Source of the DNA: Candidatus Eiseniibacteriota bacterium
GTDB lineage: Bacteria; Eisenbacteria; RBG-16-71-46
Reading direction: 5' to 3'
DNA length: 63,807 nucleotides
Assembly: GCA_044222065.1 (NCBI GenBank)
Contig: JBGAOA010000018.1
Location: 1-63,807, forward strand
Shown here: positions 21,138 to 36,396 of the stretch, piece after piece
How the letters are laid out: every line of letters begins with the position of its first letter
How positions within the stretch are numbered: position 1 is the first letter of the stretch
Notes under the pieces: model-generated
Told to the model about the DNA's origin: nothing
Databases searched by the model: none
Seen by the model: only the letters and a program-made list of their open reading frames with translations
Position numbers and translations under genes: made by a program

Positions 21138-21233
21138 GCCGCTCCGTCGTTACGGAACGGCGTAGTGGATGGGCGGCGCGGAACGAACGCGGCGATCGAG
21201 GGGACCGGCGCGTCTCGAATCGTCCGCCGCGAG

Positions 21234-21626: not shown

Positions 21627-21651
21627 GACGGTCTCCTCGAGCGGTCGGCGT

Positions 21652-22350
21652 TCAGATCGCGAGCGCGCGCTCGACGGCGGCGCGCGCGAGCAGGCGGGTC
21701 GAATCGAGCGTCGGCAGCGACGCGTTGCGGTCGTCGAGCACGAGCGGCAGCTCGGTGCAGCCGAGGATCACGGCGTCGGCGCCGGCATCGCGCAGGCGAT
21801 CCACGACCTCGCGCAGCGCCGCGACCGAGCCGGGCCGGAACTCGCCGCGCACGAGTTCCTCCATGATCACGCCGTGTACGACGTCGAGGTCGCGAGACTC
21901 GGGGCGCAGTGCGGCGAGCCCGTGGACGCGCAGCGCCTCCGGGTAGACGTCGCTCGTCACGAGCCAGCGCGTGCCGAGGAGCGCGGGCGCGCGCAGCCCG
22001 CGGCGCACGACCTCGGCGGCGACGACCTCGGCGATGTGGAGCCACGGCCGCGGCGAGCGCTCGCGCACGCGCGGCAGCGCGGCGTGAATCGTGTTGTCCG
22101 GGCAGATCAGGAAGTCGGCGCCGGCGGCCGCGAGCCGATGGGCCGAATCGAGCATGAGCGTCGCGATGCCGTCGAGGTCGGCGCGGTCGAGGCACGCGAC
22201 GTAGTCCGCGAGCGCGTGCGAGTGGAGCGACAGCTCGGGGTGTGCGTGCGCGCCGAGCCGCGCCTCGCCTTCGGCGCAGATCGTCCGATGGCAGAGCGAC
22301 GCGCCCTCGGCCGAGCAGGCCACGATGCCGATGTGCAGCGCGCGCCCCAT
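21652..22350 (-). CDS. Aspartate/glutamate racemase family protein
   Basis: 232 aa. Conserved blocks HIGIVACSAEGASLC and AVILGCTELPLV are present. Confidence 0.8.
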   Translation of the reverse strand: MGRALHIGIVACSAEGASLCHRTICAEGEARLGAHAHPELSLHSHALADYVACLDRADLDGIATLMLDSAHRLAAAGADFLICPDNTIHAALPRVRERSPRPWLHIAEVVAAEVVRRGLRAPALLGTRWLVTSDVYPEALRVHGLAALRPESRDLDVVHGVIMEELVRGEFRPGSVAALREVVDRLRDAGADAVILGCTELPLVLDDRNASLPTLDSTRLLARAAVERALAI

Positions 22351-22418
22351 CGCCGGACGGTCAGCGCGCCGACGAGGGACGCGGGTGCGGCGGCGGCACG
22401 CGGAGGACTCCCGCGCGC

Positions 22419-22790
22419 TCAGACATGCTGGTCGACGAGGATCGGATTGCCGTCAGGATCCACGACGATGAAGTGTGCGGGGCCTTTCGTGGACTCGTCG
22501 GCCTCCGCCTGGAGCGCGATGCCCTTCGACTTCAGATCGCGCTGGATCTCGCGCACGTCGGCGAACGAGGCGAGCGGCTGCGCGCCCTGGTCCCAGCCGG
22601 GATTGAACGTCAGCGTGTTCTTCTCGAACATGCCCTGGAAGAGCCCGATGACGTGATCGCCGTTCTTGAGGATCAGCCACCTCTGGTCGGCGTTGCCGCC
22701 GAGCTTCTGGAAGCCGAGCTTCTCGTAGAACGCCTTCGAGGCGTGGATATCCTTCACGGCCAGACTGATCGAGAACGCGCCGAGCAGCAT
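22419..22790 (-). CDS. VOC (glyoxalase/bleomycin-resistance) family protein
   Basis: 123 aa. A VOC fold signature is present (FSISLAVKDIHASKAFYEKLGF ... HFIVVDPDGNPILVDQ). Confidence 0.8.
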   Translation of the reverse strand: MLLGAFSISLAVKDIHASKAFYEKLGFQKLGGNADQRWLILKNGDHVIGLFQGMFEKNTLTFNPGWDQGAQPLASFADVREIQRDLKSKGIALQAEADESTKGPAHFIVVDPDGNPILVDQHV

Positions 22791-22962
22791 GGTGGGCTCC
22801 TGGGGTCGAGTGACGTGCCGGACGAGTGTCGCGGGCGCGGACTCTAGCGCAGAAGCAGCCGCGCGTGGGGCTGCGCTCGGCGAGGCACGAAGACGAAGGC
22901 GGAGCGCCGGCGCCGTCCACCACGCCTGCGCTCCGCTTCACCCTCCGGGAGCGGCGACGGGA

Positions 22963-23832
22963 TCACCCGCCCGGGAACTCCACGTCGTTCGTGGCGTCGT
23001 TCGCGAGCGGCTGCGTCACCGGCGGCCACACGCCCGCGTCCGTCTGGCCTTCCATCTCGCCCATGCGCGGCGCGACGCCCGGGTCGCGGCGGAAGAGCAC
23101 GCCGAGCTGGAAGCGCGGGCCCTTCGACACCTCCATCGCCTTCGCGAGATCCGTCGGGTCGTAGTCGTCCGGCAGCAGGTCGCAGCGCTGGTAGATCTGT
23201 TCGGCGTAGGTCGGCGTCTGGTACGTCACGCAACCCGCGAGCACGTGCACGAACGCGAAGCCGGGGTAGCGGATCGCCTCGGCGAGCGTCTGCCGCAGGT
23301 GCGGCAGGTTGCCCGCGTGCGTGCGCGCGACGAAGCCGCAGCCCGCGCTGAGCACGAGCAGCACCGGATTCAGCGGGCGCTCGTCCGGCCCCGCGAGGCC
23401 GCGCTCCTGCTTGAAGTCCGCCTCGGTCGTCGGCGACGCCTGCCCCTTCGTGAGTCCGTAGATGCCGTTGTCGAGCACCGCGTACGTGATGTTCGGATTG
23501 CGGCGGATCGCGTGCGGCAGGTGACCGAGCCCGATGCTGAAGCCGTCGCCGTCGCCGCCGACGACGATCGTCGTGATGTCGGGACGCGACAGCTTGAGGC
23601 CGGTCGCGATCGGCAGCGCGCGGCCGTGGATGGAATTGAACGCGTAGCTCTTCGTGTAGCCCGGCAGCCGGCTCGAACAGCCGATGCCGCTGATCACCGC
23701 GAGCCGCTCGGGAATCACTTCGCAGTCGGCGAGCGCCTGCGTCAGCCCCTTCAGCACGCCGTAGTCGCCGCAGCCCGTGCACCAGACGGGCGTCACTTCG
23801 GTCCGGAAATCCTTGGCCTTGAGTTGCGTCAC
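22963..23832 (-). CDS. korB: 2-oxoacid:ferredoxin oxidoreductase, beta (TPP-binding) subunit
   Basis: GTG start at 23832 is preceded by GGAGGTG. Motifs: WCTGCGDYG, GIGCSS, GGDGDGFSIGLGHL. 289 aa. It overlaps the korA stop by 4 nt. Confidence 0.9.
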   Translation of the reverse strand: MTQLKAKDFRTEVTPVWCTGCGDYGVLKGLTQALADCEVIPERLAVISGIGCSSRLPGYTKSYAFNSIHGRALPIATGLKLSRPDITTIVVGGDGDGFSIGLGHLPHAIRRNPNITYAVLDNGIYGLTKGQASPTTEADFKQERGLAGPDERPLNPVLLVLSAGCGFVARTHAGNLPHLRQTLAEAIRYPGFAFVHVLAGCVTYQTPTYAEQIYQRCDLLPDDYDPTDLAKAMEVSKGPRFQLGVLFRRDPGVAPRMGEMEGQTDAGVWPPVTQPLANDATNDVEFPGG

Positions 23833-25598
23833 GGCGTCACCTCCAGCAGGCGCTGCAGCTCGACCGTCGTGACCGGAACGCCGCCGCTGCGGGCGAGCGA
23901 CCGGAACTCGTCGATGTGCGTCATTCCCGCGATGTGGCGGAAGAACTGGCCCTGGAAACTCAGCTCGAGCACGCAACCCTTTGCGAGCCCCTTTCGCCAG
24001 CGTTCGAACGCCTCGAGCGGGAACGGGTGGATCACTTCGGGCATGAACACGCGCCACTCGGGACGGCGCGCGACCCACTCGCGCAGCAGCCCGTACTGGC
24101 TTCCCCACGCGACGATGCCGTTCGGCGCGTCGTCGCGGCCGAGCGTGCGGAACCAGCCCTTCGTCTCTTCCGCGATCGCCTCGAACTTCCTGAAGCGCTT
24201 CTCGTTCATGCGCTGGTGCATCAGCGTGTCGGCGGTCGGCAGGCCCTCGGGCGTGTGCTCGATGCCCGCCGCCTGGTACGTGCCGCCCGGCACGCCCGGC
24301 ACGCGGAACGCGTTCACGCCGTGGGCGCCCGACAGGTCGAAACGCGCCGGCGAGTCCGACGGCGACCAGCGTTTGCGCAGCACGCGGTCGTGGCGGCCGA
24401 TCGGCACGTCGCGGATCTGGCGGCGTTGCGCGATGTAGGCGTCCGACAGCACGAGCACGGGCAGCTGGTACGTCTCGCTGATCGTGAACGCCTTGAGCAT
24501 CACGTCGCGCGCGTGCACGACGTCGAACACGCCGAGCACGACGCGCGGGAAGTCGCCGTGACCGCCGTACACCGACTGGAACAGGTCGCTCTGTTCGGTG
24601 CGCGACGGCATCCCGGTCGCGGGACCGGCGCGCTGGCAGTCCACGATGACGGCCGGCAGCTCGGCCATGCTCGAGAGCCCGAGCATCTCGGTCATCAGCG
24701 ACAGGCCGGGGCCGCTCGTCGCCGTCATCGAGGGCACGCCGCCGAACGACGCGCCGAGCACCATGCCGAGCGCCGCGATCTCGTCCTCGGCCTGCACGAC
24801 CCGTCCGCCGCGTGCGGGCAGCTCTTCGATGAGCGTCTCCATCACCTCGGACGACGGTGTGATCGGGTAGCCCGCGAAGAAGCTCAGTCCCGCCTCCATC
24901 GCGCCGCGCGCCGACGCCTCGTTCCCCGTCTCGACGTGCAGCGCCGTGCCGCGCGCGCGCAGCTTCGTGATGGGCTGCAGCTCGTTGGTCGCGTGCGCGC
25001 CGTTGAAGGTCGTCAGGTTGTTCGCGAGCGCCTTCGGCTTGTGGCCGAAGCGCTTCCGCAGCGAGCCGCGCGCGAACTCGGGGTCCCAGCCGAGGAGCCG
25101 CGTGAGCAGCGCGAGCGCTTTCATGTTCTTGGGCTCGCCCGCGACCTCGACGCCGTCCTGGAACGTCGCGAACGGATAGCGCGTCGCCTCGCGCGCGAGC
25201 GGGCCGAGCCACTCGGGCAGCGGATTCTGGTCCGCGGCGTCGAGGATCACGACGCTGTCGGACTTGAGCCGCACCGCGCCCTGGAAGCGCTTCAGGTCGG
25301 CGATGCGGAAGCACAGCAGCACGTCGGCCTGGTCGCCCTCGTACTGCACTTCGGTCTCGGACAGGCGCAGCACGACCGCGGACTCGCCGCCGCGGATCTG
25401 CGGCCCGTACGACTGGACCATCATGCCGTAGATGCCCTGTTCGGCGGCCATGTTGAGCAGCAGGTCGCCGAGCAGCGCGACACCGTCGCCGCCGCTCCCG
25501 ACCAGCGCGAGGACGACGGAGTGCGTCGCGGAGGCCACGTCGGCGGGGGACGCCGATGCGGACTCGTGCGACGGATGAGCGAGGGACTCCGGACGCAT
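23829..25598 (-). CDS. korA: 2-oxoacid:ferredoxin oxidoreductase, alpha subunit with N-terminal gamma domain fused
   Basis: ATG at 25598 is preceded by GGAGG. The gamma-like block is LVGSGGDGVALLGDLLLNMAAEQGIYGMMVQSYGPQIRGGES, followed by the alpha core GYPITPSSEV. 590 aa. Confidence 0.9.
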   Translation of the reverse strand: MRPESLAHPSHESASASPADVASATHSVVLALVGSGGDGVALLGDLLLNMAAEQGIYGMMVQSYGPQIRGGESAVVLRLSETEVQYEGDQADVLLCFRIADLKRFQGAVRLKSDSVVILDAADQNPLPEWLGPLAREATRYPFATFQDGVEVAGEPKNMKALALLTRLLGWDPEFARGSLRKRFGHKPKALANNLTTFNGAHATNELQPITKLRARGTALHVETGNEASARGAMEAGLSFFAGYPITPSSEVMETLIEELPARGGRVVQAEDEIAALGMVLGASFGGVPSMTATSGPGLSLMTEMLGLSSMAELPAVIVDCQRAGPATGMPSRTEQSDLFQSVYGGHGDFPRVVLGVFDVVHARDVMLKAFTISETYQLPVLVLSDAYIAQRRQIRDVPIGRHDRVLRKRWSPSDSPARFDLSGAHGVNAFRVPGVPGGTYQAAGIEHTPEGLPTADTLMHQRMNEKRFRKFEAIAEETKGWFRTLGRDDAPNGIVAWGSQYGLLREWVARRPEWRVFMPEVIHPFPLEAFERWRKGLAKGCVLELSFQGQFFRHIAGMTHIDEFRSLARSGGVPVTTVELQRLLEVTP

Positions 25599-25599
25599 T

Positions 25600-26472
25600 T
25601 CAAGCCTCCACGGTGGCGGGTTCGACCGGTTCCGGTCGGGGGCGCTGACCGATGCGATGCAGGATCGTGCTCGGACAGATTTCGACGCACGCTTCGTTGC
25701 ACGACGGCCCGTAGGCGATGCACTTCTCGTGATCGATGACGATCGTCCGGCCGTCCCACTCGATCGCGCCGGCCGGGCACTTCGAGACGCACTTGCGGCA
25801 CAGCGTGCAGCCCACCATGCAGGTGGCGCGCACCACGGACTGCTTGTCCTTCGCGACGCACGACAGCTCGATGCGGTGGTTGCGCGGGTAGAGCTGGAAC
25901 AGCTCCTTCGGGCACACGGGCACGCACACGCCGCAGCCGGTGCAGGTCTCGGGATCCACGACCGCGATGCCTTCGCCACCGAGCGACAGCGCGCCGAACG
26001 GGCACGCCTTCACGCAGTCGCCGAGGCCGAGGCAGCCGTTCTTGCACGCCTTCGGGCCGCCGAAGACGAGCGACGCCGCGGCGCAGGTCTCGAGCCCGGC
26101 GTACTGCGCCTCGTCGCGCGCGTAGGCGCTCACGCCGTGGCAGCGCATCAGCACGACGCGGTCCTGCACCTCGCCCGGCGCCTTGCCCGTGAGCGCGGCG
26201 ACCTGCGACGCGACCGTCGCGCGTCCCGGCGCGCACAGGCTCGGCGGCACGCCCGGGTCGAGCGCGACCGCCTCGGCGTACGCCTGGCAGCCCGCGTAGC
26301 CGCACGCGCCGCAGTTCGCCGACGGCAGCGCCGCGCGCACGCGTTCGACGAGCGGATTCACCTCGACCCGGAACTTGATCGCGGCGGCCGCGAGCGTGAC
26401 GCCGAAGAACAGCCCGAGCAGGGCGAAGAGCCCGAGTCCCCACAGCGCGATTTCGAGAGCGGAGCGGTCCAT
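25600..26472 (-). CDS. rnfB: Rnf complex subunit B (4Fe-4S polyferredoxin)
   Basis: N-terminal TM helix, the CGACGYAGC motif, and several CxxCxxCxxxCP clusters. 290 aa. Confidence 0.9.
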   Translation of the reverse strand: MDRSALEIALWGLGLFALLGLFFGVTLAAAAIKFRVEVNPLVERVRAALPSANCGACGYAGCQAYAEAVALDPGVPPSLCAPGRATVASQVAALTGKAPGEVQDRVVLMRCHGVSAYARDEAQYAGLETCAAASLVFGGPKACKNGCLGLGDCVKACPFGALSLGGEGIAVVDPETCTGCGVCVPVCPKELFQLYPRNHRIELSCVAKDKQSVVRATCMVGCTLCRKCVSKCPAGAIEWDGRTIVIDHEKCIAYGPSCNEACVEICPSTILHRIGQRPRPEPVEPATVEA

Positions 26473-26475
26473 GGG

Positions 26476-27450
26476 TCAGCGCATGAAGTTGAGGCCGGAG
26501 AAGCCCATGAACGCGAGCGCGAACAGTCCCGCGAGCGCGAACGCGATCGGCAGGCCCTGGAAGCTCTGCGGCACGCGCGCGAGTTCCATCTTCTCGCGCG
26601 CGCACGACATGAGGAACAGCGCGAGCGCGAAGCCGAGCCCCGAGCCGAGCGCGAGCGCGAAGGCGTCCTGCGGCGAGGCGTTCGACGCGGCGTTCAGCAG
26701 CGGCACCGCGAGGATGATGCAGTTCGTCGTGATCAGCACGAGGTAGATGCCGAACTTCTTGTGCAGTTCGGCGTGCGTCTTCTTGAGCATCGTGTCGAGG
26801 AACTGCACGACGAACGCGACGACGCCGATGAACACGATCACCTGCAGGAACGCGAGGTGGTGCGGCAGCATGACGAACGCGTAGATGAGCCAGGACAGCA
26901 TCGCCGTGCCGATCATCACGGCCGTGAACGTGATGCCCATGCCGACCGCCGTGTCGCGGCGCTTCGTCACGCCGAAGAAGATGCAGAGCCCGAGGTAGCG
27001 CGTGAACACGAAGTTGTTGATGAGCGCGGCGCTCATCACCGCGGTGAGGAGCAGCGCCCACGGCGCCGGCCGCACCGGCAGGCGCGACGGCGGATCGGCG
27101 AGTTCGAGCACGTAGCGCCCCGCGGGCTCGAGCCGGCCGGCCACGGTGAGCAGCGCGACGTTCCCCGGCTGCGGCTCGACGGCCGTGACGGCGATCGGCA
27201 GGTCGGGCGCGAGTTCCGGCGTGAGCCGGAACGCGGCCGGAGCGAGCCCGTCGGCGGGCCGCGCGAGCTTCACGCGCAGGTGGTCGGGCGCGAGCACGCG
27301 CGCCGAGGCGAGCGCGCCGCGATCGTTCGTCGCCGCGTGCACGCGCGGCGCGTGGAACGCGATCGCACCGAGCGCGAGCGCGAGCAGCCCGAGCAGCAGC
27401 GCGATGAACGCGACGAGCGGCTTGCGGAACTCGCTCGGATCATGCCGCAT
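26476..27450 (-). CDS. rnfA: Rnf complex subunit A with ~138-aa N-terminal extension
   Basis: The RnfA core begins at MSAALINNFVFTRYLGLC. An in-frame upstream extension (MRHDPSEF...TM helix...~100 aa) starts at the ATG at 27450, which overlaps the rnfE stop. Confidence 0.85.
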   Translation of the reverse strand: MRHDPSEFRKPLVAFIALLLGLLALALGAIAFHAPRVHAATNDRGALASARVLAPDHLRVKLARPADGLAPAAFRLTPELAPDLPIAVTAVEPQPGNVALLTVAGRLEPAGRYVLELADPPSRLPVRPAPWALLLTAVMSAALINNFVFTRYLGLCIFFGVTKRRDTAVGMGITFTAVMIGTAMLSWLIYAFVMLPHHLAFLQVIVFIGVVAFVVQFLDTMLKKTHAELHKKFGIYLVLITTNCIILAVPLLNAASNASPQDAFALALGSGLGFALALFLMSCAREKMELARVPQSFQGLPIAFALAGLFALAFMGFSGLNFMR

Positions 27451-28099
27451 GCTGTCCTCCCGCGGCGTCGGCCGACGAGTGTCCGGTGAGCTGGCGCTCG
27501 AGGCGGTTGAAGAACGCCATGAGCAGCGCGATCGAGAAGAACCCGCCCGCCGGAAGCGCGAAGAAGAGCAGCGGCTTCACGGGCACGACCCGGAACCCGA
27601 GCAGCGTGCCGTTGCCGAGCAGCTCGCGGAACACGCCGATCGCGACGAGCGCGAGCAGGAACCCGAGCCCCATGCCGACGCCGTCCCAGAACGTGGGCAC
27701 GAGCGGCTGGCGCGAGGCGAACACCTCGAGGCGCGAGATGATGATCGCGAACGCGACGATGAGCTTCACGTACAGGCCGACCTGGGCGTAGAGCGCGGGC
27801 ACGAATGCCGCGAGCGACATGTCCATCGCGCTCACCCACACCGCGATGATCAGCGTGTACACCGGGATGCGCACGGCCGGGTGGATCCACTGGCGCGTGA
27901 GCGCGACCGTGCAGCTCGACAGCACCTGCACCGCGAGCACGGCGACGCCGAGGATGATGCCGTTCATGACGGTGTTCGTGACCGCGACCGCCGGGCACAG
28001 CGAGAGGGCGAGCCGGAACACCGGGTTCTCGGCGAAGATGCCGTTCAGGAGCAGGTAGCGGACTCCGGGCGGCTTTCCGGGTTCGGGAACGAAGCTCAC
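27440..28099 (-). CDS. rnfE: Rnf complex subunit E
   Basis: GTG at 28099 is preceded by GGAGGGTGG. Sequence ENPVFRLALSLCPAVAVT is present. 219 aa. The GTGA overlaps the rnfG stop. Confidence 0.9.
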   Translation of the reverse strand: MSFVPEPGKPPGVRYLLLNGIFAENPVFRLALSLCPAVAVTNTVMNGIILGVAVLAVQVLSSCTVALTRQWIHPAVRIPVYTLIIAVWVSAMDMSLAAFVPALYAQVGLYVKLIVAFAIIISRLEVFASRQPLVPTFWDGVGMGLGFLLALVAIGVFRELLGNGTLLGFRVVPVKPLLFFALPAGGFFSIALLMAFFNRLERQLTGHSSADAAGGQHAA

Positions 28100-28926
28100 G
28101 ATCCACCCTCCAGGTGCGGGGAGACGATCGCCCAGCGGCGGCGGAAGTGGTCCACGGTCTCGCGCACGCCGTCGGTGACGGCGCGGCTCGAGATCGTCGC
28201 GCCCGTGACGGCGTACACGCGGTTCACGCCCTCGCGCGCGATCAGCGCCTCGTGCTCCTTGCGCCAGCGCGCGAGCGGCTCGCGTTCGAGCGCGTGGAGC
28301 GCGGCGCTCCAGTCCTCGGGGCAGGGATCGCGCGTGACCTCGAGCGTCGCGAGGCTCTCGGCGCGGCGGCCGACGTACTGGCCCTGGAACCACGGCGTCG
28401 CGGTCTCGGCGCCGAGCCCGGGGTCTTCCTCGTGCTGGACGATCTTCACGCCGGCGATCGCGAACGCGGAGTCGAGCGCGACGAAGAAGCGGATCACGTT
28501 CTTGTAGCCGCGCGACTCGCCCTCGACCACGAATCCCGCCGGCGCCCCCGCGCGGCTCGCGACGAAGATGCGGCCGAGCGGCTCGCACGTCTTCTCCTCG
28601 GCGGCGGCGTGCGCGACGTCGGTCGCGCCCGCGAGCGTTCCGTCGAGCGCGAACACGAGCCTGCGGTCCCCGTCGCCGGCTTCCCTTGCGGCGCGGTACA
28701 CCACCTGCCCGTGTTCGCGGTCGAGGTACTGGCTCACTTCGCGCACGACGGCCGTCGAGTCGAGCGACAGCATCGCAGCGATCGCCTCGCGCTCCTCGGA
28801 GGCCCGCGCCGCCGCGGCGTAGCGCTCGGTCCCCATGTAGATGCCGCCGAGGATCGCCGCGCCGATCACGCACGCGCCGAGCATCGAGCCGATCATGGCG
28901 GGCACTTCGCGGTTCGGCGCGCTCAC
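28096..28926 (-). CDS. rnfG: Rnf complex subunit G (FMN-binding)
   Basis: FMN-attachment region is TGATISSRAV. The start is either GTG at 28926 (GTGA overlap with the rnfD stop) or ATG at 28896. Confidence 0.85.
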   Translation of the reverse strand: MSAPNREVPAMIGSMLGACVIGAAILGGIYMGTERYAAAARASEEREAIAAMLSLDSTAVVREVSQYLDREHGQVVYRAAREAGDGDRRLVFALDGTLAGATDVAHAAAEEKTCEPLGRIFVASRAGAPAGFVVEGESRGYKNVIRFFVALDSAFAIAGVKIVQHEEDPGLGAETATPWFQGQYVGRRAESLATLEVTRDPCPEDWSAALHALEREPLARWRKEHEALIAREGVNRVYAVTGATISSRAVTDGVRETVDHFRRRWAIVSPHLEGGS

Positions 28927-29903
28927 GACGGCGTCCCCGCGAGCGCGACGCGGCGCGGCCGGAACCACAGGTTGAGCGCCGGCACGAGCATGTTCGCGAT
29001 CAGGATCGCGTAGCAGATGCCCTCGGGGTAGCCGCCCCACGTGCGGATGACGCCCGTGAGCGCGCCGACGAGCAGGCCGAAGACGATCTGGCCGTTGCGC
29101 AGGTTCGGCGACGTCACGTAGTCGGTCGCCATGAAGAACGCGCCGAGCCACAGCCCGCCCGTGAGCAGGTGCAGGCCGAACGCGCCGGTCCACAGCGTGA
29201 CGAGCGCGAGCCCGGCGAACACCGCGAGCGGGATCGTGAGCCGGATGATGCCGCGCGCGAGCAGGATGCCCGCGCCGAGCGCGAGCAGCAGCACCGAGGT
29301 CTCGCCGATCGAACCCGGCCGGAAGCCCGCGAGCAGGTCGAGCCACGTGCGCCCGTGGACGCTCGCGACGCGCAGCGCCTCGCCGAGCCCGTGCTCGCGC
29401 AGCGCCGCGAGCGGCGTCGGCGTCGTCGCGGCGTCGAGGTGCGGCGTGCCGAGCGCGCGCGGCACGATCCAGCCGGAGGTCATCGCGAGCGGGAAGCTCG
29501 CCATGAGGAATGCGCGGCCGACGAGCGCCGGGTTGAACAGGTTGAAGCCGAGTCCGCCGAAGATCCACTTGCCGACGAGGATCGCGAACAGGCCGCCGAG
29601 GAACGCCGCCCACGCGGGGAGTTGCGCGGGCAGCGTCATTGCGAGCAGAAGTCCGGTGCAGACGGCGCTGCCGTCCTCGAGCGAAGCGCGCTTCTTGAGC
29701 ATCCGTGCCGCGAGCCACTCGCCGCCCGCCGTGCCCGCGATCGAGCCGAGGATCACGAACAGCGCGCGCGGCCCGAACACGAACACGCCCCAGAGCGCCG
29801 CGGGCGCGAGGCTCGCGTTCACCCACCACATGATGCGGGCGGTGCTCTCTTCGGTCCGCACGTGCGGCCCCGGGGCGATGATGTACGGCGCGTGCTCGGT
29901 CAC
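28923..29903 (-). CDS. rnfD: Rnf complex subunit D (NqrB/RnfD family)
   Basis: GTG at 29903 overlaps the rnfC TGA. Sequence APGPHVRTEESTARIMWWV matches the conserved SPH/PHxR N-terminus, with multiple TM helices. 326 aa. Confidence 0.9.
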   Translation of the reverse strand: MTEHAPYIIAPGPHVRTEESTARIMWWVNASLAPAALWGVFVFGPRALFVILGSIAGTAGGEWLAARMLKKRASLEDGSAVCTGLLLAMTLPAQLPAWAAFLGGLFAILVGKWIFGGLGFNLFNPALVGRAFLMASFPLAMTSGWIVPRALGTPHLDAATTPTPLAALREHGLGEALRVASVHGRTWLDLLAGFRPGSIGETSVLLLALGAGILLARGIIRLTIPLAVFAGLALVTLWTGAFGLHLLTGGLWLGAFFMATDYVTSPNLRNGQIVFGLLVGALTGVIRTWGGYPEGICYAILIANMLVPALNLWFRPRRVALAGTPS

Positions 29904-31264
29904 GTTGCGATCCTCAGTTCGCGCGCGCGGCGCAGCGCGGACTTCGACACCTGCATGAACTGGGCGAGCGGCCGGCCGGCCGGGCAGACGAACGAGCACG
30001 AACCGCACTCGTAGCAGTCGAGCGGCCCGAAGCGTTCGGTGTCGAGCGTGCGGCCGACCTCGACGCGCAGCGACACCTGATCGGGCTCGAGCCCGAGCGG
30101 GCACGCGTCGAGGCAGCGCCCGCACGCGATGCACGGCCCGAAGCCCTCTTCGAGCGGTCCGCGCCCGGTGAGCAGCACGAGGCCGTTCATGCCCTTCACG
30201 ACCGGCAGGTCGAGGCGCGGCAGCGTGCGGCCCATCATCGGCCCGCCGGCCACGATGCGCGTCGTCTCGTCCTTCGTGCCGCCGCACGCCGCGACGACGT
30301 GCGAGAGCAGCGTGCCGATCGGCACGCGCAGGTTGCGCGGCGTCGCGATGCCCGGCCCCGTGACCGTGAAGATGCGGTCGAGGAGCGGCTTCTGGAAGCG
30401 CAGCGCCTCGTACACCGCGACCGCGGTCGCGACGTTCTGCACGACGACGCCGACCGCGAACGGCAGCTGGCGCGGCGGAATGACGCGGCCCGTGAGTGAT
30501 TCGACGAGCTGCTTCTCGGCGCCCTGCGGATAGCGCACCTGGCACGGCACGACTTCGAACGTCATCCCGTCGCGCACGGCGTCCTTCCCGGCGGCGACGA
30601 GCGCGGGGATCGCGTCGAGCTTGTCGGCCTCGAGACCGAGCAGCACGCGCTTCACGCCGACGAGGCGCGCCATCGCGAGCGAGCCCTCCACGACCTCGCG
30701 CGGGTGCGCGAGCATCGTGCGGTAGTCGGACGTGAGGTAGGGCTCGCACTCGGCGCCGTTGACGACGAACGTGTCCACCTTCGCGCTCGGCGGCAGCCGC
30801 AGCTTGCGATAGGTCGGGAACGCCGCGCCGCCGAGGCCGACGATGCCGGCCTCCTTGATGCGCGCGAGCGACTCGTCGAGCGACAGCGAACGCCAGTCGG
30901 GGTCCTCGGGGAACTCGAGCGGCTCGAGGTCGGGCTGCGCCTGGATCACGATGCTCTGCGCCGTGACGAGCGTCGGGTGCGGGCGCTTGTCGAGCGGGCG
31001 CACCTTGCCCGAGATCGTGGCGTGGATCGGCGCGCCGGTCTCGCCGCCTTCGGCGATCTTCTGGCCGCGCCGCACGACGTCGTTCTTCGCGACGATCGGC
31101 GTCGCGGGCTCGCCGAGGTGCTGCGCGAGCGGCAGCCACACTTCGCCCGGCGGCGGGACGTCCTCGATGGCCTTCCCCGCCGCGAGTTCCTTGTGGGACT
31201 CGGGGTGGATGCCGCCGCGGGAAAACGTGCGGAGGCTCGCGCGCTCGCCGCTCATCGCGCTCAT
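29900..31264 (-). CDS. rnfC: Rnf complex subunit C (NADH-binding, 4Fe-4S)
   Basis: ATG at 31264 overlaps the apbE TGA (ATGA). Motifs: GLGGAAFPT, FVVNGAECEPYLTSD, and two CxxCxxCxxxCP motifs. 454 aa. Confidence 0.9.
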   Translation of the reverse strand: MSAMSGERASLRTFSRGGIHPESHKELAAGKAIEDVPPPGEVWLPLAQHLGEPATPIVAKNDVVRRGQKIAEGGETGAPIHATISGKVRPLDKRPHPTLVTAQSIVIQAQPDLEPLEFPEDPDWRSLSLDESLARIKEAGIVGLGGAAFPTYRKLRLPPSAKVDTFVVNGAECEPYLTSDYRTMLAHPREVVEGSLAMARLVGVKRVLLGLEADKLDAIPALVAAGKDAVRDGMTFEVVPCQVRYPQGAEKQLVESLTGRVIPPRQLPFAVGVVVQNVATAVAVYEALRFQKPLLDRIFTVTGPGIATPRNLRVPIGTLLSHVVAACGGTKDETTRIVAGGPMMGRTLPRLDLPVVKGMNGLVLLTGRGPLEEGFGPCIACGRCLDACPLGLEPDQVSLRVEVGRTLDTERFGPLDCYECGSCSFVCPAGRPLAQFMQVSKSALRRARELRIAT

Positions 31265-32280
31265 CCGACGAAGTGCGTTTCGAGCGCGCCCGGCCAGCCG
31301 CGGAAGCGGTCCGGGCCGAGCAGGAACGACACCGTGGACATCACGTCGGACTCGACGCCCGTGCGCGCGACGACGCTCGCGCTCAGGTGACCGTTCGCGG
31401 GCACGCCGCGCCGCGCGTCGAACAGGTGGCCGAGCGTGAGCGCGCCGAGCGCGTGCGTCTGCTCGCTGTTGCCGCTCGTCGCGACCGCGCGATCGTTCAG
31501 CACGAACACGTGGTCGAGCGCGCCGGTCGCGGGATGGAACACGCCGACCGACCAGCCCGGTGCGCCGTCGTCGGGCGCGCCGAGGCCGTACACGTTCCCG
31601 CCGATGTCCACGAGCGCGGAGCGCACGCCCTCGGCGCGCAGCGCGTCCACCGCGCGGTCGAGCGCCCAGCCCTTGCCGATCGAGCCGAGGTCGAAGCCGG
31701 CGCGCTCGCGCATGAGGCCGAGCGTGCCGGCGGCGCGGTCGGCCGCGACGTAGCGCGTGCCCATGCACGCGAGCGCTTCGTCCACCTCACGAGCGTTCGG
31801 CGCCGCGCCGCGGGCGGCGCCGTAGAAGCCGTACGCCCGCATGAGCGGGAGGAGCGTCGGGTCGTACACGCCGTTCGACCGCTCCGACGCCGCGCACGCG
31901 AGCGACACCACCTCGATCACCGCATCGTCCACCCGTGTCGCCCGCGCACCCGCCGCCGCGTTCACCCGCGCGAGTTCGCTGTCCGCGCGGTGCACGCTCA
32001 TCTGAGCGTCCACCGCGCGCACCGCGGCGAACGCACGCTCCAGCGCGCGCGCCGCGCGCGCGCGCTCCGCCACCACCACCACCCGCATCCTCGTTCCGAG
32101 CGCCGGCCGGCTCGCCTCGAGCCTCTCGGGCCGGCGCTCGCGCACCTGCCTGTGCACGAGCGGGGCGAGCGCCCCTGCGCCCGCGAGCAATCCCAGACCG
32201 GCGAGGAAACGGCGGCGCGAGAGCGGCCCCGCTTCCGAAGTCCAATGCCAGAGCCCACCCCGCGGTCCCGTTCCGGGCAT
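31261..32280 (-). CDS. apbE: FAD:protein FMN transferase (flavin transferase for RnfG/RnfD maturation)
   Basis: ATG at 32280 is preceded by GGGGGA. A Tat-type signal SRRRFLAGLGLLAGAGALA is present. ApbE-like core: DLGSIGKGWALD. 339 aa. Confidence 0.85.
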   Translation of the reverse strand: MPGTGPRGGLWHWTSEAGPLSRRRFLAGLGLLAGAGALAPLVHRQVRERRPERLEASRPALGTRMRVVVVAERARAARALERAFAAVRAVDAQMSVHRADSELARVNAAAGARATRVDDAVIEVVSLACAASERSNGVYDPTLLPLMRAYGFYGAARGAAPNAREVDEALACMGTRYVAADRAAGTLGLMRERAGFDLGSIGKGWALDRAVDALRAEGVRSALVDIGGNVYGLGAPDDGAPGWSVGVFHPATGALDHVFVLNDRAVATSGNSEQTHALGALTLGHLFDARRGVPANGHLSASVVARTGVESDVMSTVSFLLGPDRFRGWPGALETHFVG

Positions 32281-32352
32281 CCTCGATCCCCCATGCGGCG
32301 ACGCGTGTTTCATCGAGGGTCGCCGCGCCCTCGCACTGCCCGGGGCCGATTG

Positions 32353-32369
32353 CTTGCATAAGTAATGCA
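32353..32369. promoter_or_regulatory. AT-rich inverted repeat TTGCAT-AAGTA-ATGCAA in the divergent apbE/ferredoxin intergenic region; candidate operator. A weak sigma-54-like GG-N10-GC (TTGCA) match sits on the plus strand.
   Basis: Read directly. It is the only AT-rich 17-mer in a ~70% GC context. Upstream GGGCCGATTGCTTGCA has the GG/GC spacing of -24/-12 elements (3/7 + 5/5 match). Confidence 0.3.
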
Positions 32370-32432
32370 AGCGAACGCCGGCGTGCTGTCCGGCAACGGC
32401 GAACCCAAGGACTCAGTGAGGAGGAGGGGAAG

Positions 32433-32639
32433 ATGGCGAAGGTGCCCGAGTTCTATGTGGATGGCGACCTGTGCACGGAGTGCGGCGACTGCATCAAGGC
32501 GCTGCCGATGGCCTTCCGAAAGGTCGACGGTGAAGAGGTCGCAGAGGTCTTCAACACCGAGATCAACGAAACCCTCCTGCCAAAACTGCAGCAACAAATG
32601 ACGGATTGTCCTGGGCACGCGATCCTGTGGAAGAAATGA
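32433..32639 (+). CDS. Small single-cluster ferredoxin
   Basis: 68 aa. The RBS is GAGGAGGGGAAG. Motif CTECGDC...DCPGHAI (CxxCxxC...CP). It sits immediately upstream of the OFOR genes. Confidence 0.6.
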   Translation: MAKVPEFYVDGDLCTECGDCIKALPMAFRKVDGEEVAEVFNTEINETLLPKLQQQMTDCPGHAILWKK

Positions 32640-32646
32640 GGAAGCC

Positions 32647-33624
32647 GTGGATCCCATCGACCCTCGTGGTCTGCTGAAAAACTCCGCGCTGGAGCTGCGC
32701 GGGGACGGCAAGGCGGGCGGCGGGCTCGTGCTCGCCTTCCAGAGTCTTGCGAACCTGTTCCTGCGCGATCCCGAGACGCACGTGCAGGAGTGGCCGTTCT
32801 TCAGCTCGGCGCGCCGGGGAGCGAACATCCGCTCGTTCCTGCGCGCGAGCCGCCAGGCCGTGCGGCCGGCGTGCGAAGTGTCTCGTCCGAGCGTCTCGCT
32901 GCTGATGGACGAAGTCGCCTCGCAGTCGGTGGACTTCGCGCAGGGCGTTCCGGCCGGCGGCACGTTCGTGCTGAACACGCGCCGCAGTCCCGAAGAGTGC
33001 GCGAAGCACTTCCACCTCTCGGGCCGCGTGTTCACGATCCCGGGCGACGACATCGGGATGAAGCACCTGAAGGCGCCAATCGGAAACGTCGCGACGTACG
33101 TCGCGATGGCCGAGGCGATCGGCGGGTTCGAGCGTGAGGACGTGTGCGACGCGTTCCTCAAGATGCTCAAGAAGCGCCACGTTCCGGATGCCGTGTTGCA
33201 GCGCAACACCGCGGCGCTCGACGCCGCGTTCGGCGCCGTGAAGCACGGCGTGTACGACTGCGCCGGACCCGGCGATCACCTGCCGGTGCCGTTCTCGGGC
33301 TACGGCGCGCTGCCGGTCGGCGCGCAGACCGCGCTCCGGCTCTCCGAGGTCAATCGCACGGCGAACTTCGCGCCGAGCGGCTTCCGGCTGCGGTTCGAGG
33401 ATCCGAACGACGCGTGCACGGGATGCGCGCACTGCATCACGAACTGCCCCGAAGGCATCATCCGGTTCGTGCCGAACGCCGAGACCTCGCTGAAGGTCAC
33501 CGGCGCGGACGTCAACCAGTTCTGCAAGCTCTGCCAGGAGTGCATCGCGGTCTGTCCCGAGAAGCTGTTCAGCTCGGCGCCGTTCGAGGAGCACTGGGCG
33601 GAAGAGGAGCAACACGCGTCATGA
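32647..33624 (+). CDS. 2-oxoacid:ferredoxin oxidoreductase gamma subunit fused to delta (2x[4Fe-4S]) subunit
   Basis: The gamma pattern is ELRGDGKAGGGLVLAF...FFSSARRGANIRSFLRAS. The C-terminal part has CTGCAHCITNCP and CKLCQECIAVCP. The GTG start follows GAGGA. Confidence 0.85.
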   Translation: MDPIDPRGLLKNSALELRGDGKAGGGLVLAFQSLANLFLRDPETHVQEWPFFSSARRGANIRSFLRASRQAVRPACEVSRPSVSLLMDEVASQSVDFAQGVPAGGTFVLNTRRSPEECAKHFHLSGRVFTIPGDDIGMKHLKAPIGNVATYVAMAEAIGGFEREDVCDAFLKMLKKRHVPDAVLQRNTAALDAAFGAVKHGVYDCAGPGDHLPVPFSGYGALPVGAQTALRLSEVNRTANFAPSGFRLRFEDPNDACTGCAHCITNCPEGIIRFVPNAETSLKVTGADVNQFCKLCQECIAVCPEKLFSSAPFEEHWAEEEQHAS

Positions 33625-34955
33625 GCGCACCCTCCGGCACGAAGTTCCCGATGCCTCACGTGTCGACGCCCTCGGGCGAGCGATACGACGGCGCGATCGA
33701 CCTCGAGAAGGTGCGGGCCGCGCACCATCCCGTGTACGAGTCGCGCGAGACGATCACGGCCGACGGCAACACCGCCGCCGCGATCGCGACGCTGCAGATG
33801 TGGCGCTGCGTGATCTACCCCGGCTTCCCGATCACGCCGTCCACGAAGTGGATCGAGACGGTCGCGGCGAAGGTCGCGTCCGATCCCACGACCACGAAGC
33901 GCGTGAAACTGCTCGAGGCCGAGCACGCGGTCGCGGACTACATGGTGGCGGCGGGCGCCGCCTGTCGCGACCTGATCTTCCCCACCGCGACGAGCTCGGT
34001 GGGCCTCGACCACATGACCGAGACGACGCGCTCGCTGGGCGCTTCGGGACTCGGAAACGTGATGATCATCAACGTGTATCGCGCGACCGCGAACTTCCCG
34101 CTGTGCATCGAGGGCGATCCGTCCGACGCGCTCGCGCACCGCGACGACGGGTTCATCCAGATCTGCGCGCGCGGCAAGCAGCAGATCTACGACACGGTGA
34201 TCCAGGCGCCCTGCCTCGGCATGCATCCCGAGGTGATGACGCCGACGATGCCCGGCTACTACGGCATCAAGGACAGCCACCGGAACGCGCGGCTGCGCGT
34301 CGAGCCCGACGAGGAGATCACGAAGTTCCACGACCGCTGGATCCGCCCGTGCGCGCTGCCCGGCCTGCTGAACGGTGACACCGCGCTCGGCAACTGCGTC
34401 ACGTCGCGGCATTTCCAGGGCTTCAAGATCTCGCAGAAGCAGCGCTTCGAGCGCGTGTTCGACGTGCTGCCCCGCATCGGCGCCGACTTCGAGAACCACT
34501 TCGGCCGCCCGGGTCTCGCGTTCTTCGACTCGGTCGGATTCGCGGCCGACGGACAGGCCGACATCGCGGTCGTCGGCATGGGCCCCGACTTCGGAACGTT
34601 CGACGCGAACCGCGAGTCGTGGGCGGCGCGCTGGGGCTTGGGGCTGGGCGGCATCGCGATGCGGCTGCTGACGCCGTTCCCGCGTGAGGCCGTGAAGCAG
34701 CGGCTCAAGCACGCGAAGGTCGTGCTCGTCGTCAACCAGGCGCACCACATGGGACGCGGCCACCTGACGCTCGACGTCGTGGACGCGCTCTCGGACCTCC
34801 CGAACCCGCCGAAGGTCGTCAGCGCGTTCGCCGGCCTCGGCGGCGCCGACGTCAGCGAGGCGACGTGGGAGAAGATGCTCCTCATGGCGCGCACCGCGCT
34901 CGAGGGCGGCAACGTTCCGCCGTACGCGTTCTTCCACGAAGGAGCGGCCCTATGA
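33621..34955 (+). CDS. 2-oxoacid:ferredoxin oxidoreductase alpha subunit (Por/Vor type)
   Basis: 444 aa. ATGA overlap with the upstream stop. Sequence YPGFPITPSTKW is present. Confidence 0.9.
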   Translation: MSAPSGTKFPMPHVSTPSGERYDGAIDLEKVRAAHHPVYESRETITADGNTAAAIATLQMWRCVIYPGFPITPSTKWIETVAAKVASDPTTTKRVKLLEAEHAVADYMVAAGAACRDLIFPTATSSVGLDHMTETTRSLGASGLGNVMIINVYRATANFPLCIEGDPSDALAHRDDGFIQICARGKQQIYDTVIQAPCLGMHPEVMTPTMPGYYGIKDSHRNARLRVEPDEEITKFHDRWIRPCALPGLLNGDTALGNCVTSRHFQGFKISQKQRFERVFDVLPRIGADFENHFGRPGLAFFDSVGFAADGQADIAVVGMGPDFGTFDANRESWAARWGLGLGGIAMRLLTPFPREAVKQRLKHAKVVLVVNQAHHMGRGHLTLDVVDALSDLPNPPKVVSAFAGLGGADVSEATWEKMLLMARTALEGGNVPPYAFFHEGAAL

Positions 34956-35965
34956 GCGGCTACAAGGAAATCGCGACCCGCGAGAGCTGCTTCCGGCCCG
35001 GCTCGACGCTGTGCCCGGGCTGCATGGAGGCGATCGCGTTCCAGAACGTCGGGCGCGTGTCGGACAACGGCGTGAAGACCGTGTTCACGATCGGCACGTC
35101 GTGCGCCGAGGTGTCGTCGCTGTTCTTCCCGAACGTCGTGGCGTGGGGACGCGGCGACGCGCCCCCGGACGACTTCACGAAGAGCTTCTCGATCCTGCAC
35201 AACGTGTTCGAATCCGCACCGACGCTCGCGGAAGCCGTGCGCGACGTCGCCGACGTGCTCACCGAACAGGGGGCGCTCCAGCACCCCGTGCAGGTGATCT
35301 CGTCGAGCGGCGACGGCGGCGCCCTCGCGATCGGTCTGCGCGCGCTGCTGCACACGATCCACCGCCGCGCGCGCGTCACGCTCATGGTGCTCGTGAACGA
35401 GATCTTCGCGAACACCGGCTTCCAGTACAGCCCGGCGACGACGCCATTCGCCGACACGAGCACGACGCCGAACGGGCCCGGGCATCCGGGCAACGTGCAG
35501 CCGCCGCTCGATTACATCCACCTGTGCATCGCCGCGGGCGCGGGGATGGTCGCGCAGATCAGCCCGGCGCACGGCAAGATGTTCGTGAAGACGTGGGAGC
35601 GCGCGCTCGAGGCCGAGGGCACGGCGGTGATCTTCGTGCCCGCGCCGTGCATCAGCGGCTGGAAGTTCGAGGACGGCGAGACCGTCCGGCTCGCGACGCT
35701 CGGCGCCCAGACGGGCGTGTTCCCCGTGTTCGTGTGGGAGAAGGGCAAGGGCGGCTCGGTGAAGGACTGTTCGCTCACCGAGAGCGAGCGCCCGGCGGTC
35801 GAGGAGTTCCTCGGCATCCAGCGCCGCTTCCACCACATGGTGCAGAAGGACCCGGCGACGGGTCGCTTCGCGCCCCGACCGGGACGCGAGGAGGACGTCG
35901 CGAAGCTCAAGGGCTGGGTGCAGTCGAACGTCGAGCGGCTCTACAAGCTCGCCGAGCTCAAGTAG
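34952..35965 (+). CDS. 2-oxoacid:ferredoxin oxidoreductase beta subunit (TPP-binding)
   Basis: 337 aa. ATGA overlap. Motifs: CPGCMEAIA and GDGGALAIG. Confidence 0.9.
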   Translation: MSGYKEIATRESCFRPGSTLCPGCMEAIAFQNVGRVSDNGVKTVFTIGTSCAEVSSLFFPNVVAWGRGDAPPDDFTKSFSILHNVFESAPTLAEAVRDVADVLTEQGALQHPVQVISSSGDGGALAIGLRALLHTIHRRARVTLMVLVNEIFANTGFQYSPATTPFADTSTTPNGPGHPGNVQPPLDYIHLCIAAGAGMVAQISPAHGKMFVKTWERALEAEGTAVIFVPAPCISGWKFEDGETVRLATLGAQTGVFPVFVWEKGKGGSVKDCSLTESERPAVEEFLGIQRRFHHMVQKDPATGRFAPRPGREEDVAKLKGWVQSNVERLYKLAELK

Positions 35966-35983
35966 TCGGATCCGCTTCGAACT

Positions 35984-36023
35984 CCGGGCCGCGTCCGCGA
36001 GGGCGCGGCCCGGAAGCGTTTTC
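35984..36023 (+). terminator. Terminator candidate: CCGGGCCGCG-loop-CGCGGCCCGG followed by GCGTTTTC
   Basis: Perfect 10-bp stem with a short T-tract, 19 nt downstream of the OFOR beta stop. Confidence 0.45.
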
Positions 36024-36371: not shown

Positions 36372-36396
36372 TTCCGGACGCCCGGGCGAAACGAAC

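Follow-up and report, generated by a model that had tools for sequence, protein, structure and literature searches.

Layout of the locus

The analyzed window is a stretch of 63,807 nt from a soil bacterium of Candidatus Eiseniibacteriota. On its minus strand, from position 32280 down to 22963, nine consecutive open reading frames were found: apbE, rnfC, rnfD, rnfG, rnfE, rnfA, rnfB, korA, and korB (Table 1). A preliminary description of this DNA had counted ten genes and left the strand unstated, although its own list, like the sequence, holds nine; its gene names agree with the Pfam and NCBIfam profile matches in all nine cases. Its account of the junctions was exact. The apbE and rnfC genes share an ATGA overlap of 4 nt, and GTGA overlaps of 4 nt each join rnfC to rnfD, rnfD to rnfG, and rnfG to rnfE. 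The overlap between rnfE and rnfA amounts to 11 nt, gaps of 3 nt (the largest within the operon) and 1 nt separate rnfA from rnfB and rnfB from korA, respectively, and a 4-nt GTGA overlap leads from korA into korB. Tight stop/start junctions thus occur at 8/8 gene pairs of the operon, compared to 5/18 other same-strand neighbor pairs in the window, for which the start calls are approximate (Fisher p = 8e-4).

The predicted start codons, as assigned in the preliminary description, are supported by their conservation in orthologues, by GGAGG-like (Shine-Dalgarno-like) motifs 6-11 nt upstream of six of the eight internal starts, and by public gene callers, whose starts are identical for RnfA, RnfE, KorA, and KorB in exact-sequence look-ups. 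The ATG of apbE at 32280 has GGATCGAGG upstream; an alternative TTG start at 32370 is unlikely, as it lies inside a conserved palindrome. A promoter scan found no promoter-like sites inside the operon and a terminator scan found terminator-like sites at chance level, both results being uninformative. Downstream of korB, a candidate terminator was recognized. Lacking a T-run, it was missed by the consensus scan, and the whole region gave no better RNA fold than its shuffled versions (z = -0.76).

Judged from this layout, apbE through korB may be co-transcribed and translationally coupled. The start/stop overlaps permit the coupling that had been proposed, but they do not demonstrate it. Stoichiometric co-production, which had been suggested as well, is not implied by overlaps when one product is a soluble enzyme and the other a membrane complex; nor does it follow here, since ATGA overlaps are also used by neighboring operons in the same window, namely the divergent operon of a second 2-oxoacid:ferredoxin oxidoreductase (OFOR) and pfk/aceK.

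Table 1. Features of the apbE-korB operon and of the divergent fdx-OFOR operon, with positions in the window
Feature	Position	Strand	Description	Support
candidate terminator	22886..22939	minus	GC-rich hairpin then GTCTTCGTG, 24 nt past korB stop	sequence reading, RNA fold
korB	22963..23832	minus	289 aa, OFOR beta (TPP site, single [4Fe-4S]), GTG start	Pfam TPP_enzyme_C, PFO_beta_C
korA	23829..25598	minus	589 aa, OFOR gamma (domain III) fused to alpha (domains I-II)	Pfam POR, POR_N
rnfB	25600..26472	minus	290 aa, long polyferredoxin type	NF005503, 316.8 bits (cutoff 252)
rnfA	26476..27450	minus	324 aa; N-terminal TM/signal helix, ~90-aa Ig-like domain, RnfA core (residues 135-320)	
rnfE	27440..28099	minus	219 aa, GTG start	NF009070, 200.6 bits (cutoff 184)
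rnfG	28096..28926	minus	276 aa, GTG start	PF04205 FMN_bind; TIGR01947, 67.8 bits (under cutoff 102)
rnfD	28923..29903	minus	326 aa, GTG start	TIGR01946, 273 bits (cutoff 207)
rnfC	29900..31264	minus	454 aa, NADH/FMN-binding domain, two 4Fe-4S motifs	TIGR01945, 446 bits (cutoff 246)
apbE	31261..32280	minus	339 aa, FAD:protein FMN transferase	PF02424 ApbE, 205 bits
candidate operator	32354..32370		perfect palindrome TTGCAT-N5-ATGCAA in the apbE/fdx intergenic region	
fdx	32433..32639	plus	68 aa, single-cluster ferredoxin	PF13370 Fer4_13, E = 3.9e-10
second OFOR gamma-delta	32647..33624	plus	fusion of domain III and dicluster ferredoxin domain	Pfam POR, Fer4
second OFOR alpha	33621..34955	plus	ATGA overlap with gamma-delta gene	Pfam POR_N, PFOR_II
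second OFOR beta	34952..35965	plus	ATGA overlap with alpha gene	Pfam TPP_enzyme_C

The apbE and fdx genes are transcribed divergently from a shared intergenic control region of 152 nt, whose palindrome is the single match of its kind in the whole window. In relatives, the palindrome is exact, unique, and in the same place at loci L002 and L086, degenerate at L004 and L095, and absent at L093; fdx is syntenic at all five. The second OFOR encoded downstream of fdx scores below the NCBIfam cutoffs: its gamma-delta subunit reaches 79.9 bits with TIGR02175, slightly under the cutoff of 81.1, the best match of the alpha subunit is PorA (far under the cutoff), and the beta subunit is PorB-like. A GAAGGAG motif is found at the alpha/beta junction.

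Rnf subunits and KorAB

According to Pfam and NCBIfam, all six Rnf subunit genes lie in one cluster in the order C-D-G-E-A-B. RnfC is composed of RnfC_N, Complex1_51K, SLBB, and Fer4 domains, RnfB contains 24 Cys in CxxCxxCxxxCP-like motifs, and RnfD could be aligned over its full length with its counterparts in 7ZC6 and 9ERI. Threonines predicted to accept covalent FMN are present in both RnfG, within a TGAT motif at residue 241 (AVTGATISS), and RnfD, whose site DAATTPTPL reads TTPTPL compared to TTATPL in 7ZC6_D and 9ERI_D. RnfG exceeds the usual length by an insertion within its FMN_bind domain, and the Ig-like domain of RnfA is predicted to be periplasmic. ApbE combines the ApbE domain with an extracytoplasmic targeting signal, a twin-arginine-like sequence at the N-terminus (SRRRFLAG; SRRRFLAGLGLLAGAGA), and scores far under the cutoff of the E. 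coli-type equivalog NF007774.

RnfA and RnfE each contribute two of the four Cys that ligate the intramembrane [2Fe-2S] cluster of Rnf (PMC12174285). Three of these ligands are kept here (RnfA C156, RnfA C244, and RnfE C35). The second RnfE Cys was not found in alignments to 7ZC6_E, 9ERI_E, 8AHX_E, and the related loci; its place is taken by Ala118, in a region that reads LIVAFAIIIS versus the canonical LIVVNCIILG. Among the best 150 RnfE cluster representatives, about 11 share this loss, and the NC pair is kept in 117. The complete Rnf ion pump of the preliminary description is therefore present as six subunit genes, but since RnfE is devoid of one of the four canonical Cys, canonical Rnf electron transfer is not assured.

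In KorA, the POR domain spans residues 36-200 and POR_N residues 232-459, with the YPITP motif present as GYPITPSS. KorB contains the TPP-binding motif GGDGDG...DNGIYGLTKGQ, and four of its Cys (C18, C21, C52, and C201) coincide with those of 6N2N_B in the alignment (E = 1e-67); definitions of the YPITP, TPP-binding, and four-Cys proximal [4Fe-4S] motifs of OFORs were taken from PMC5020499. The best solved relative of KorA is 6N2N_A, the OGOR of Magnetococcus marinus (E = 4e-87). No Fer4 domain was found in KorB with Pfam, and KorAB carries no delta/ferredoxin domain. These features assign KorAB to the two-subunit OFORs with gamma-alpha/beta architecture, predicted to be of the OGOR/KorAB type, with the restriction that both subunits score under the NCBIfam curated cutoffs (KorA reaches 446.5 bits with TIGR03710, cutoff 482.75). 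The substrate is most likely 2-oxoglutarate: in searches with KorA and KorB, 6N2N scored 296 and 232 bits compared to 151-175 bits for the broad-specificity OFORs of S. tokodaii, and the 90% cluster of KorB bears the automatic JGI name 2-oxoglutarate ferredoxin oxidoreductase subunit beta. Because it has no ferredoxin domain, KorAB needs a carrier, and the fdx product is the probable candidate.

Conservation and comparison with known systems

All four close relatives among the Eisenbacteria-type genomes keep the order rnfB-korA-korB, as do 11 of the 12 informative metagenome contigs. Among more distant loci, none of 76 with rnf has an adjacent kor gene, and none of 8 with korA has an adjacent rnf. 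Being retained in relatives and absent from distant loci, apbE-rnfCDGEAB-korAB is a predicted nine-gene operon that is conserved within one Candidatus Eisenbacteria lineage. The same tight junctions were observed in the orthologous loci L001-L004 and in L106 and L107, whose genes JGI had called independently. Linkage and junctions are kept together at 55-87% protein identity in at least 15 loci, which upholds the earlier view of one functional unit. In every orthologue, korA starts 1-5 nt past the rnfB stop or overlaps it, and beyond korB the gene content is not maintained between loci or the genes run convergently. The whole arrangement including the divergent fdx-OFOR operon recurs in L002, L004, L093, and L095 and partially in L086. 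On the short contig L096, the alpha part of korA is 79% identical and the upstream genes are unrelated.

The canonical clostridial and acetogen rnfCDGEAB operons (Clostridium tetanomorphum, 7ZC6; Acetobacterium woodii, 9ERI) have an identical C-D-G-E-A-B set of six subunits, and they share the long polyferredoxin RnfB, the flavinylation sites of RnfG and RnfD, and an apbE in the neighborhood. However, apbE is often nearby in those operons, whereas here it comes first and overlaps rnfC, and korAB is joined downstream. Further differences are the Ala substituted for the second [2Fe-2S] Cys of RnfE, the N-terminal TM helix and Ig-like domain of RnfA, and an RnfG that is ~70 aa longer. The scores of RnfA (191, cutoff 229), RnfG, and RnfE with TIGR01948 (171, cutoff 213) fall under the curated cutoffs. 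With the two-subunit (alpha-beta)2 OGORs of M. marinus (6N2N, the best PDB match) and Hydrogenobacter thermophilus (KorAB), KorAB shares the domain III-alpha fusion, a beta subunit with a single [4Fe-4S] cluster, the missing ferredoxin domain, and the YPITP and TPP motifs; unlike those enzymes, it is encoded within an rnf operon and scores under the NCBIfam cutoffs.

In the nqr operon of Vibrio cholerae, apbE and nqrM are co-transcribed and apbE follows the structural genes, whereas in the present operon apbE is the first gene; no nqrM-like gene was seen at the Eisenbacteria locus. Electrons would enter through RnfB and ferredoxin here, as opposed to NqrF and NADH in V. cholerae Nqr. Some rnf operons are associated with a partner redox gene, such as the cytochrome c gene of Methanosarcina acetivorans, and in Rhodobacter and Azotobacter rnf is located in nif clusters. 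As in those cases, the gene for the physiological electron partner appears to be part of the rnf operon or adjacent to it, but here this partner is a ferredoxin-reducing OFOR. No description of an OFOR within an rnf operon was found in the searchable literature.

Proposed ferredoxin loop and alternative readings

We consider it likely that the locus represents a real, conserved nine-gene operon that, together with the divergent fdx-OFOR operon, forms a ferredoxin loop working in the oxidative, energy-conserving direction. Periplasmic ApbE would attach FMN to RnfG and RnfD. Oxidation of 2-oxoacids to acyl-CoA and CO2 by the OFORs, with 2-oxoglutarate as the most likely substrate of KorAB, would supply electrons to the small ferredoxin, which the six-subunit Rnf would re-oxidize, reducing NAD+ and exporting Na+ or H+. 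The ferredoxin:NAD+ oxidoreductase activity and Na+/H+ translocation of this Rnf are predictions from sequence, and we infer the ferredoxin partner, the substrate, and the direction. The dedicated electron flow proposed earlier is plausible, but that proposal had not taken in fdx, which probably encodes the carrier, or the second OFOR. As to direction, the oxidative one is favored for a module that is reversible in principle. The window also encodes NADP-isocitrate dehydrogenase, AceK, acetyl-CoA synthetase, and PFK, a neighborhood that points to a heterotrophic, oxidative TCA/glyoxylate metabolism; the closest solved homologue, however, is the OGOR of a reverse-TCA organism and would fit the opposite direction equally well.

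In that opposite direction, which we regard as possible although rather unlikely, the ion gradient would drive NADH-dependent reduction of ferredoxin by Rnf, with KorAB acting as 2-oxoglutarate synthase and the second OFOR as pyruvate synthase. Such a system would serve reductive carboxylation in a reverse TCA-type pathway, anaplerosis, or acetate assimilation. The grouping of two OFORs and a ferredoxin with Rnf and the acetyl-CoA synthetase in the window are consistent with it, as are the similarity of KorA and KorB to the M. marinus OGOR, which has been studied as a CO2-fixing reverse-TCA OFOR, and the reversibility of Rnf (PMC12174285). OFOR reactions are reversible as well, so homology by itself sets no direction; moreover, no reverse-TCA marker was found within the window, and NADP-isocitrate dehydrogenase with AceK suggests an oxidative TCA cycle with control of the glyoxylate shunt.

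The close apposition of the rnfB stop and the korA start in every orthologue, the single [4Fe-4S] cluster of KorAB with no domain V, and the long multi-cluster RnfB would also suit a docking of KorAB on the polyferredoxin RnfB. The result would be an ion-pumping 2-oxoglutarate:NAD+ oxidoreductase, in which electrons from 2-oxoglutarate reach NAD+ with no free carrier in between. This is the least probable of the readings considered, as a small dedicated ferredoxin gene is conserved beside the operon and free ferredoxins are established partners of two-subunit OFORs (PMC5020499). Similarly improbable is the broader proposal of a distinct Rnf subfamily, comprising Eisenbacteria and a few Desulfomonilaceae and Nitrospirae-like MAGs, in which the [2Fe-2S] site was remodeled to three Cys, lost, or replaced, RnfA gained its Ig-like domain, and, in Eisenbacteria, Rnf became tied in such a supercomplex to an RnfB-docking OGOR that lacks a ferredoxin domain. 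It is likewise improbable that korAB came to lie behind rnf by chance in an ancestor and has its own transcription or regulation, the overlaps reflecting genome compaction. ATGA overlaps are indeed common in neighboring unrelated gene pairs, the rnf-kor linkage is restricted to one clade, and the korA relative of L096 has another gene context. However, order and junctions have outlasted considerable protein divergence where the downstream flanks have not, gaps of at most 5 nt leave no space for an intergenic promoter, and the biochemical partnership of OFOR and Rnf via ferredoxin is well established.

The favored ferredoxin loop is a lineage-specific arrangement of known parts with a well-understood partnership and overturns no known biochemistry. 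If the operon forms one transcript, it would provide genetic evidence as to which enzyme supplies Rnf in a candidate phylum that is uncultured and abundant in soil, and would point to a TCA-type 2-oxoacid step that gains extra energy via ferredoxin and Rnf instead of an NAD-linked dehydrogenase complex. The more unusual aspect is structural, namely a whole and evidently selected Rnf subfamily without one [2Fe-2S] Cys and with an extra, predicted periplasmic RnfA domain. Since redox-driven switching of the membrane-embedded [2Fe-2S] cluster is central to current Rnf/Nqr mechanisms, a natural three-Cys variant of Rnf may be used to probe how essential the four-Cys site is.

Gene layout and translational junctions

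The GC content of the window is ~70%, so raw lists of open reading frames are full of shadow frames, and coding frames were chosen by third-position GC analysis. Every coding frame between 32280 and 22963 lies on the minus strand, where nine consecutive genes run from apbE to korB (see the table). The preliminary description spoke of a ten-gene operon, yet its own list also amounts to nine. An open reading frame directly after korB (22453-22941, minus strand) was rejected as a tenth gene, as it has no Pfam match, is not conserved, and gives an arginine-rich, junk-like translation.

Genes of the operon, of the divergent operon and of the isocitrate dehydrogenase region
Gene	Coordinates	Strand	Remarks
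apbE	31261-32280	minus	
rnfC	29900-31264	minus	
rnfD	28923-29903	minus	
rnfG	28096-28926	minus	
rnfE	27440-28099	minus	
rnfA	26476-27450	minus	
rnfB	25600-26472	minus	
korA	23829-25598	minus	
korB	22963-23832	minus	
fdx	32433-32639	plus	68-aa single-cluster ferredoxin
OFOR gamma-delta fusion	32647-33624	plus	
OFOR alpha subunit	33621-34955	plus	
OFOR beta subunit	34952-35965	plus	
pfk, aceK, NADP-icd	4784-9264	plus	in a row; pfk/aceK 4-nt overlap; aceK encodes isocitrate dehydrogenase kinase/phosphatase

The junctions are as originally reported: the first four are 4-nt ATGA/GTGA overlaps, the fifth overlaps by 11 nt, the next two are gaps of 3 and 1 nt, and the last is again a GTGA overlap. 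Wrongly assigned start codons could create such overlaps artificially, but several observations indicate that they are real. GGAGG-like motifs are located 6 to 11 nt upstream of six of the eight internal starts, within the preceding gene. In four orthologous loci taken from genomes, where RnfB identity is 72-73%, all rnfC/D, rnfD/G, and rnfG/E junctions present there are 4-nt start/stop overlaps, rnfE and rnfA overlap by 8 to 14 nt, the rnfA/rnfB and rnfB/korA gaps measure 2 to 6 nt, and korA and korB overlap by 4 nt or, in one locus, are 9 nt apart. The genes of a relative, called independently by JGI, are packed similarly tightly, with 4-nt overlaps at both rnfB/korA and korA/korB, and exact-sequence look-ups returned RnfA (324 aa), RnfE (219 aa), KorA (589 aa), and KorB (289 aa) proteins that public gene callers had delimited identically.

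Tight junctions are enriched in the operon (8/8 versus 5/18 in the rest of the window, p = 8e-4). Overlapping junctions are customary in this genome too, and ATGA overlaps occur at 33621 and 34952 in the neighboring operon. The overlaps allow coupling by termination and reinitiation. The proposed stoichiometric co-production goes beyond this, since equal stoichiometry of a soluble enzyme and a membrane complex is not shown by overlaps that neighboring operons have too.

Conservation, the divergent operon, and control regions

The closest proteins are named at NCBI from Candidatus Eisenbacteria MAGs. A species-level genome scan with RnfB delivered 80 loci, and korA-korB follow straight after rnfB only in the four closest ones; the whole arrangement is present in two of these, while the remaining two end at contig ends. 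In the other 76 loci, all more distant (RnfB at most 58% identical; Clostridia, Desulfomonile, Methanosarcina, and others), no kor genes were found beside rnf, nor did tblastn reveal a 2-oxoacid:ferredoxin oxidoreductase (OFOR) beside three sister Rnf loci (L005, L006, and L052). A metagenome scan with KorA yielded 15 contigs with at least 63% identity, 12 of which include upstream sequence. In 11 of these 12, rnfB is located immediately upstream of korA, and the full operon is visible in three contigs (L086, L093, and L095). No rnf genes were found near the eight KorA relatives with at most 46% identity. Because of these counts from both scans, the rnf-kor linkage, whose conservation the preliminary description had proposed to check, is clade-specific and within the clade essentially constant. 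The exception is a 2.5-kb contig (L096, 1-2494): of a korA relative it carries just the alpha part (residues 213-559, 79% identical; the gamma domain is apparently missing), and unrelated genes instead of rnfB lie ahead of it. Chimeric assembly or a differing gene arrangement may account for this contig.

Diverging from apbE (32433-35965, plus strand) is another compact operon, overlooked in the preliminary description, which encodes a small ferredoxin and a second OFOR. The two operons are syntenic in two related genomes (L002 and L004) and two metagenome contigs (L093 and L095). The second OFOR scores below every NCBIfam cutoff, its best matches being PorC, PorA, and PorB. Since KorAB lacks a ferredoxin domain, the small ferredoxin would be the natural choice of carrier linking both OFORs with RnfB.

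The 152-nt intergenic region between apbE and fdx contains a perfect 17-bp palindrome, TTGCAT-N5-ATGCAA (TTGCATAAGTAATGCAA, 32354-32370), which matches nowhere else in the window. L002 (4326) and L086 (133) each have a single exact copy at the equivalent spot; L004 and L095 have a degenerate version and L093 has none. The palindrome is a candidate operator serving both divergent operons. A TTG at 32370 was dismissed as apbE start, as it sits within the conserved palindrome, and a sigma-54 reading of the TTGCA element was discarded by eye because the upstream GG is one base too close. A promoter scan of 21500-33500 found no sigma-70-like site, and five terminator-like sites versus 4.0 expected in the same region correspond to chance level; such scans say little for an uncultured phylum with 70% GC. 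A permissive search of 21000-37000 gave no Rfam match, and thus no known leader or riboswitch.

Downstream of korB, a GC-rich hairpin (22939-22895) followed by GTCTTCGTG is a candidate terminator; RNA folding of the korB 3' region gave a strong local hairpin, with the region as a whole folding no better than shuffles. The real gene downstream is a glyoxalase-family open reading frame (22419-22790) past a 172-nt gap. Nothing downstream of korB in the relatives is conserved with the window, and korB is followed by convergent genes in two relatives with JGI gene calls (L106 and L107).

Protein families and atypical Rnf subunits

Pfam and NCBIfam confirmed each of the gene names originally assigned: ApbE (205 bits), RnfC (TIGR01945, 446 bits), RnfD (TIGR01946, 273 bits), RnfG (FMN_bind domain), RnfE and RnfA (Rnf-Nqr domain), RnfB (NF005503, 317 bits; long polyferredoxin type), KorA (POR domain III and POR_N), and KorB (TPP_enzyme_C). 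KorA, KorB, RnfA, and RnfG score under the curated cutoffs and are therefore divergent members of their families. The nearest solved relative of KorA and KorB is the two-subunit 2-oxoglutarate:ferredoxin oxidoreductase of Magnetococcus marinus (6N2N; E = 4e-87 and 1e-67, respectively), with which the YPITP motif, the TPP motif, and four cluster cysteines, as defined in PMC5020499, align. The specificity determinants of the Sulfolobus tokodaii OFOR (PMC5020499) transfer poorly to KorAB; by our reading of the alignment, the position matching Lys49-beta is Arg in KorB and in the M. marinus enzyme alike.

RnfE reads LIVAFAIIIS where the proteins of C. tetanomorphum, A. woodii, and A. vinelandii have LIV(V/T)NC (canonical form LIVVNCIILG), which places Ala118 at the second-cysteine position of canonical RnfE/NqrD. 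The intramembrane [2Fe-2S] cluster is described as being held by four cysteines (PMC12174285), one of which is thus replaced. Ala118 is common to all Eisenbacteria orthologues (including L002, L004, L093, and L095) and also occurs in the sister loci L005 and L006 (Desulfomonilaceae) and L052 (Nitrospirae); among the best 150 RnfE cluster representatives, ~11 have the change and 117 have NC. The substitution defines a compact subfamily. Further clade-specific substitutions near the site are G33S, N117F, G122S, and P112K in RnfE and P157I and G283C in RnfA. RnfA Cys283 is an unlikely substitute ligand, as it lies two residues ahead of a surface REK motif. Because this conserved cofactor-site feature is not found, the predicted complex is filed as a divergent Rnf subfamily and not as canonical Rnf.

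RnfG is also unusual: it has 276 aa (family model, ~190 aa), exceeds the model by roughly 70 residues, and carries a ~40-aa insertion directly ahead of the TGAT flavinylation motif and extra sequence past the N-terminal helix. L002 could not serve as proof of an RnfA without the N-terminal domain, as N's mask this part of its stored record. One homologue (P0019, 534 aa) combines RnfE and RnfA, including the Ig-like extension, in one polypeptide, either as a natural fusion or through loss of the stop codon at the overlapping junction. The sister locus L005 (MAG SKS1.bin41, 5361-12258) shows a rearranged order, rnfD-G-E-A-B then rnfC, with apbE on the opposite strand and without kor genes.

Direction of electron flow and significance

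Following established family knowledge (the review PMC12174285 and PMC5020499), ApbE, acting in the periplasm, would flavinylate RnfG and RnfD, the OFORs would yield acyl-CoA and CO2 while reducing ferredoxin, and Rnf would hand the electrons to NAD+, translocating ions. The corresponding flavinylation features are present, namely the RRRF signal of ApbE, TGAT in RnfG, and TTPTPL in RnfD. A serious rival, although one we consider rather unlikely, is the reverse direction, in which Rnf drives ferredoxin reduction for 2-oxoglutarate or pyruvate synthesis. The oxidative direction is weakly favored because the same window encodes an NADP-isocitrate dehydrogenase (708 bits) adjoining AceK, as well as acetyl-CoA synthetase and PFK, as expected of a heterotroph using an oxidative TCA/glyoxylate system.

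AceK is associated chiefly with Proteobacteria, and its presence in an Eisenbacteria-like MAG may merit a look. Two large Sortilin/BNR-repeat proteins (10370-12586 and 48716-51919, both minus strand) and a 988-aa TPR-CHAT protein (59334-62300, minus strand) are unrelated to the operon.

Both the parts and the physiological partnership between OFOR, ferredoxin, and Rnf are already known. The searchable open-access literature gave no description of an rnf-korAB operon or of Eisenbacteria Rnf/OFOR metabolism. What appears to be new is the conserved apbE, rnf, and korAB operon with its divergent fdx-OFOR operon in a candidate phylum, alongside the atypical RnfE and RnfA predicted from it. A specialist would not be surprised by the operon as such; the three-cysteine RnfE subfamily, on the other hand, might well be a surprise.
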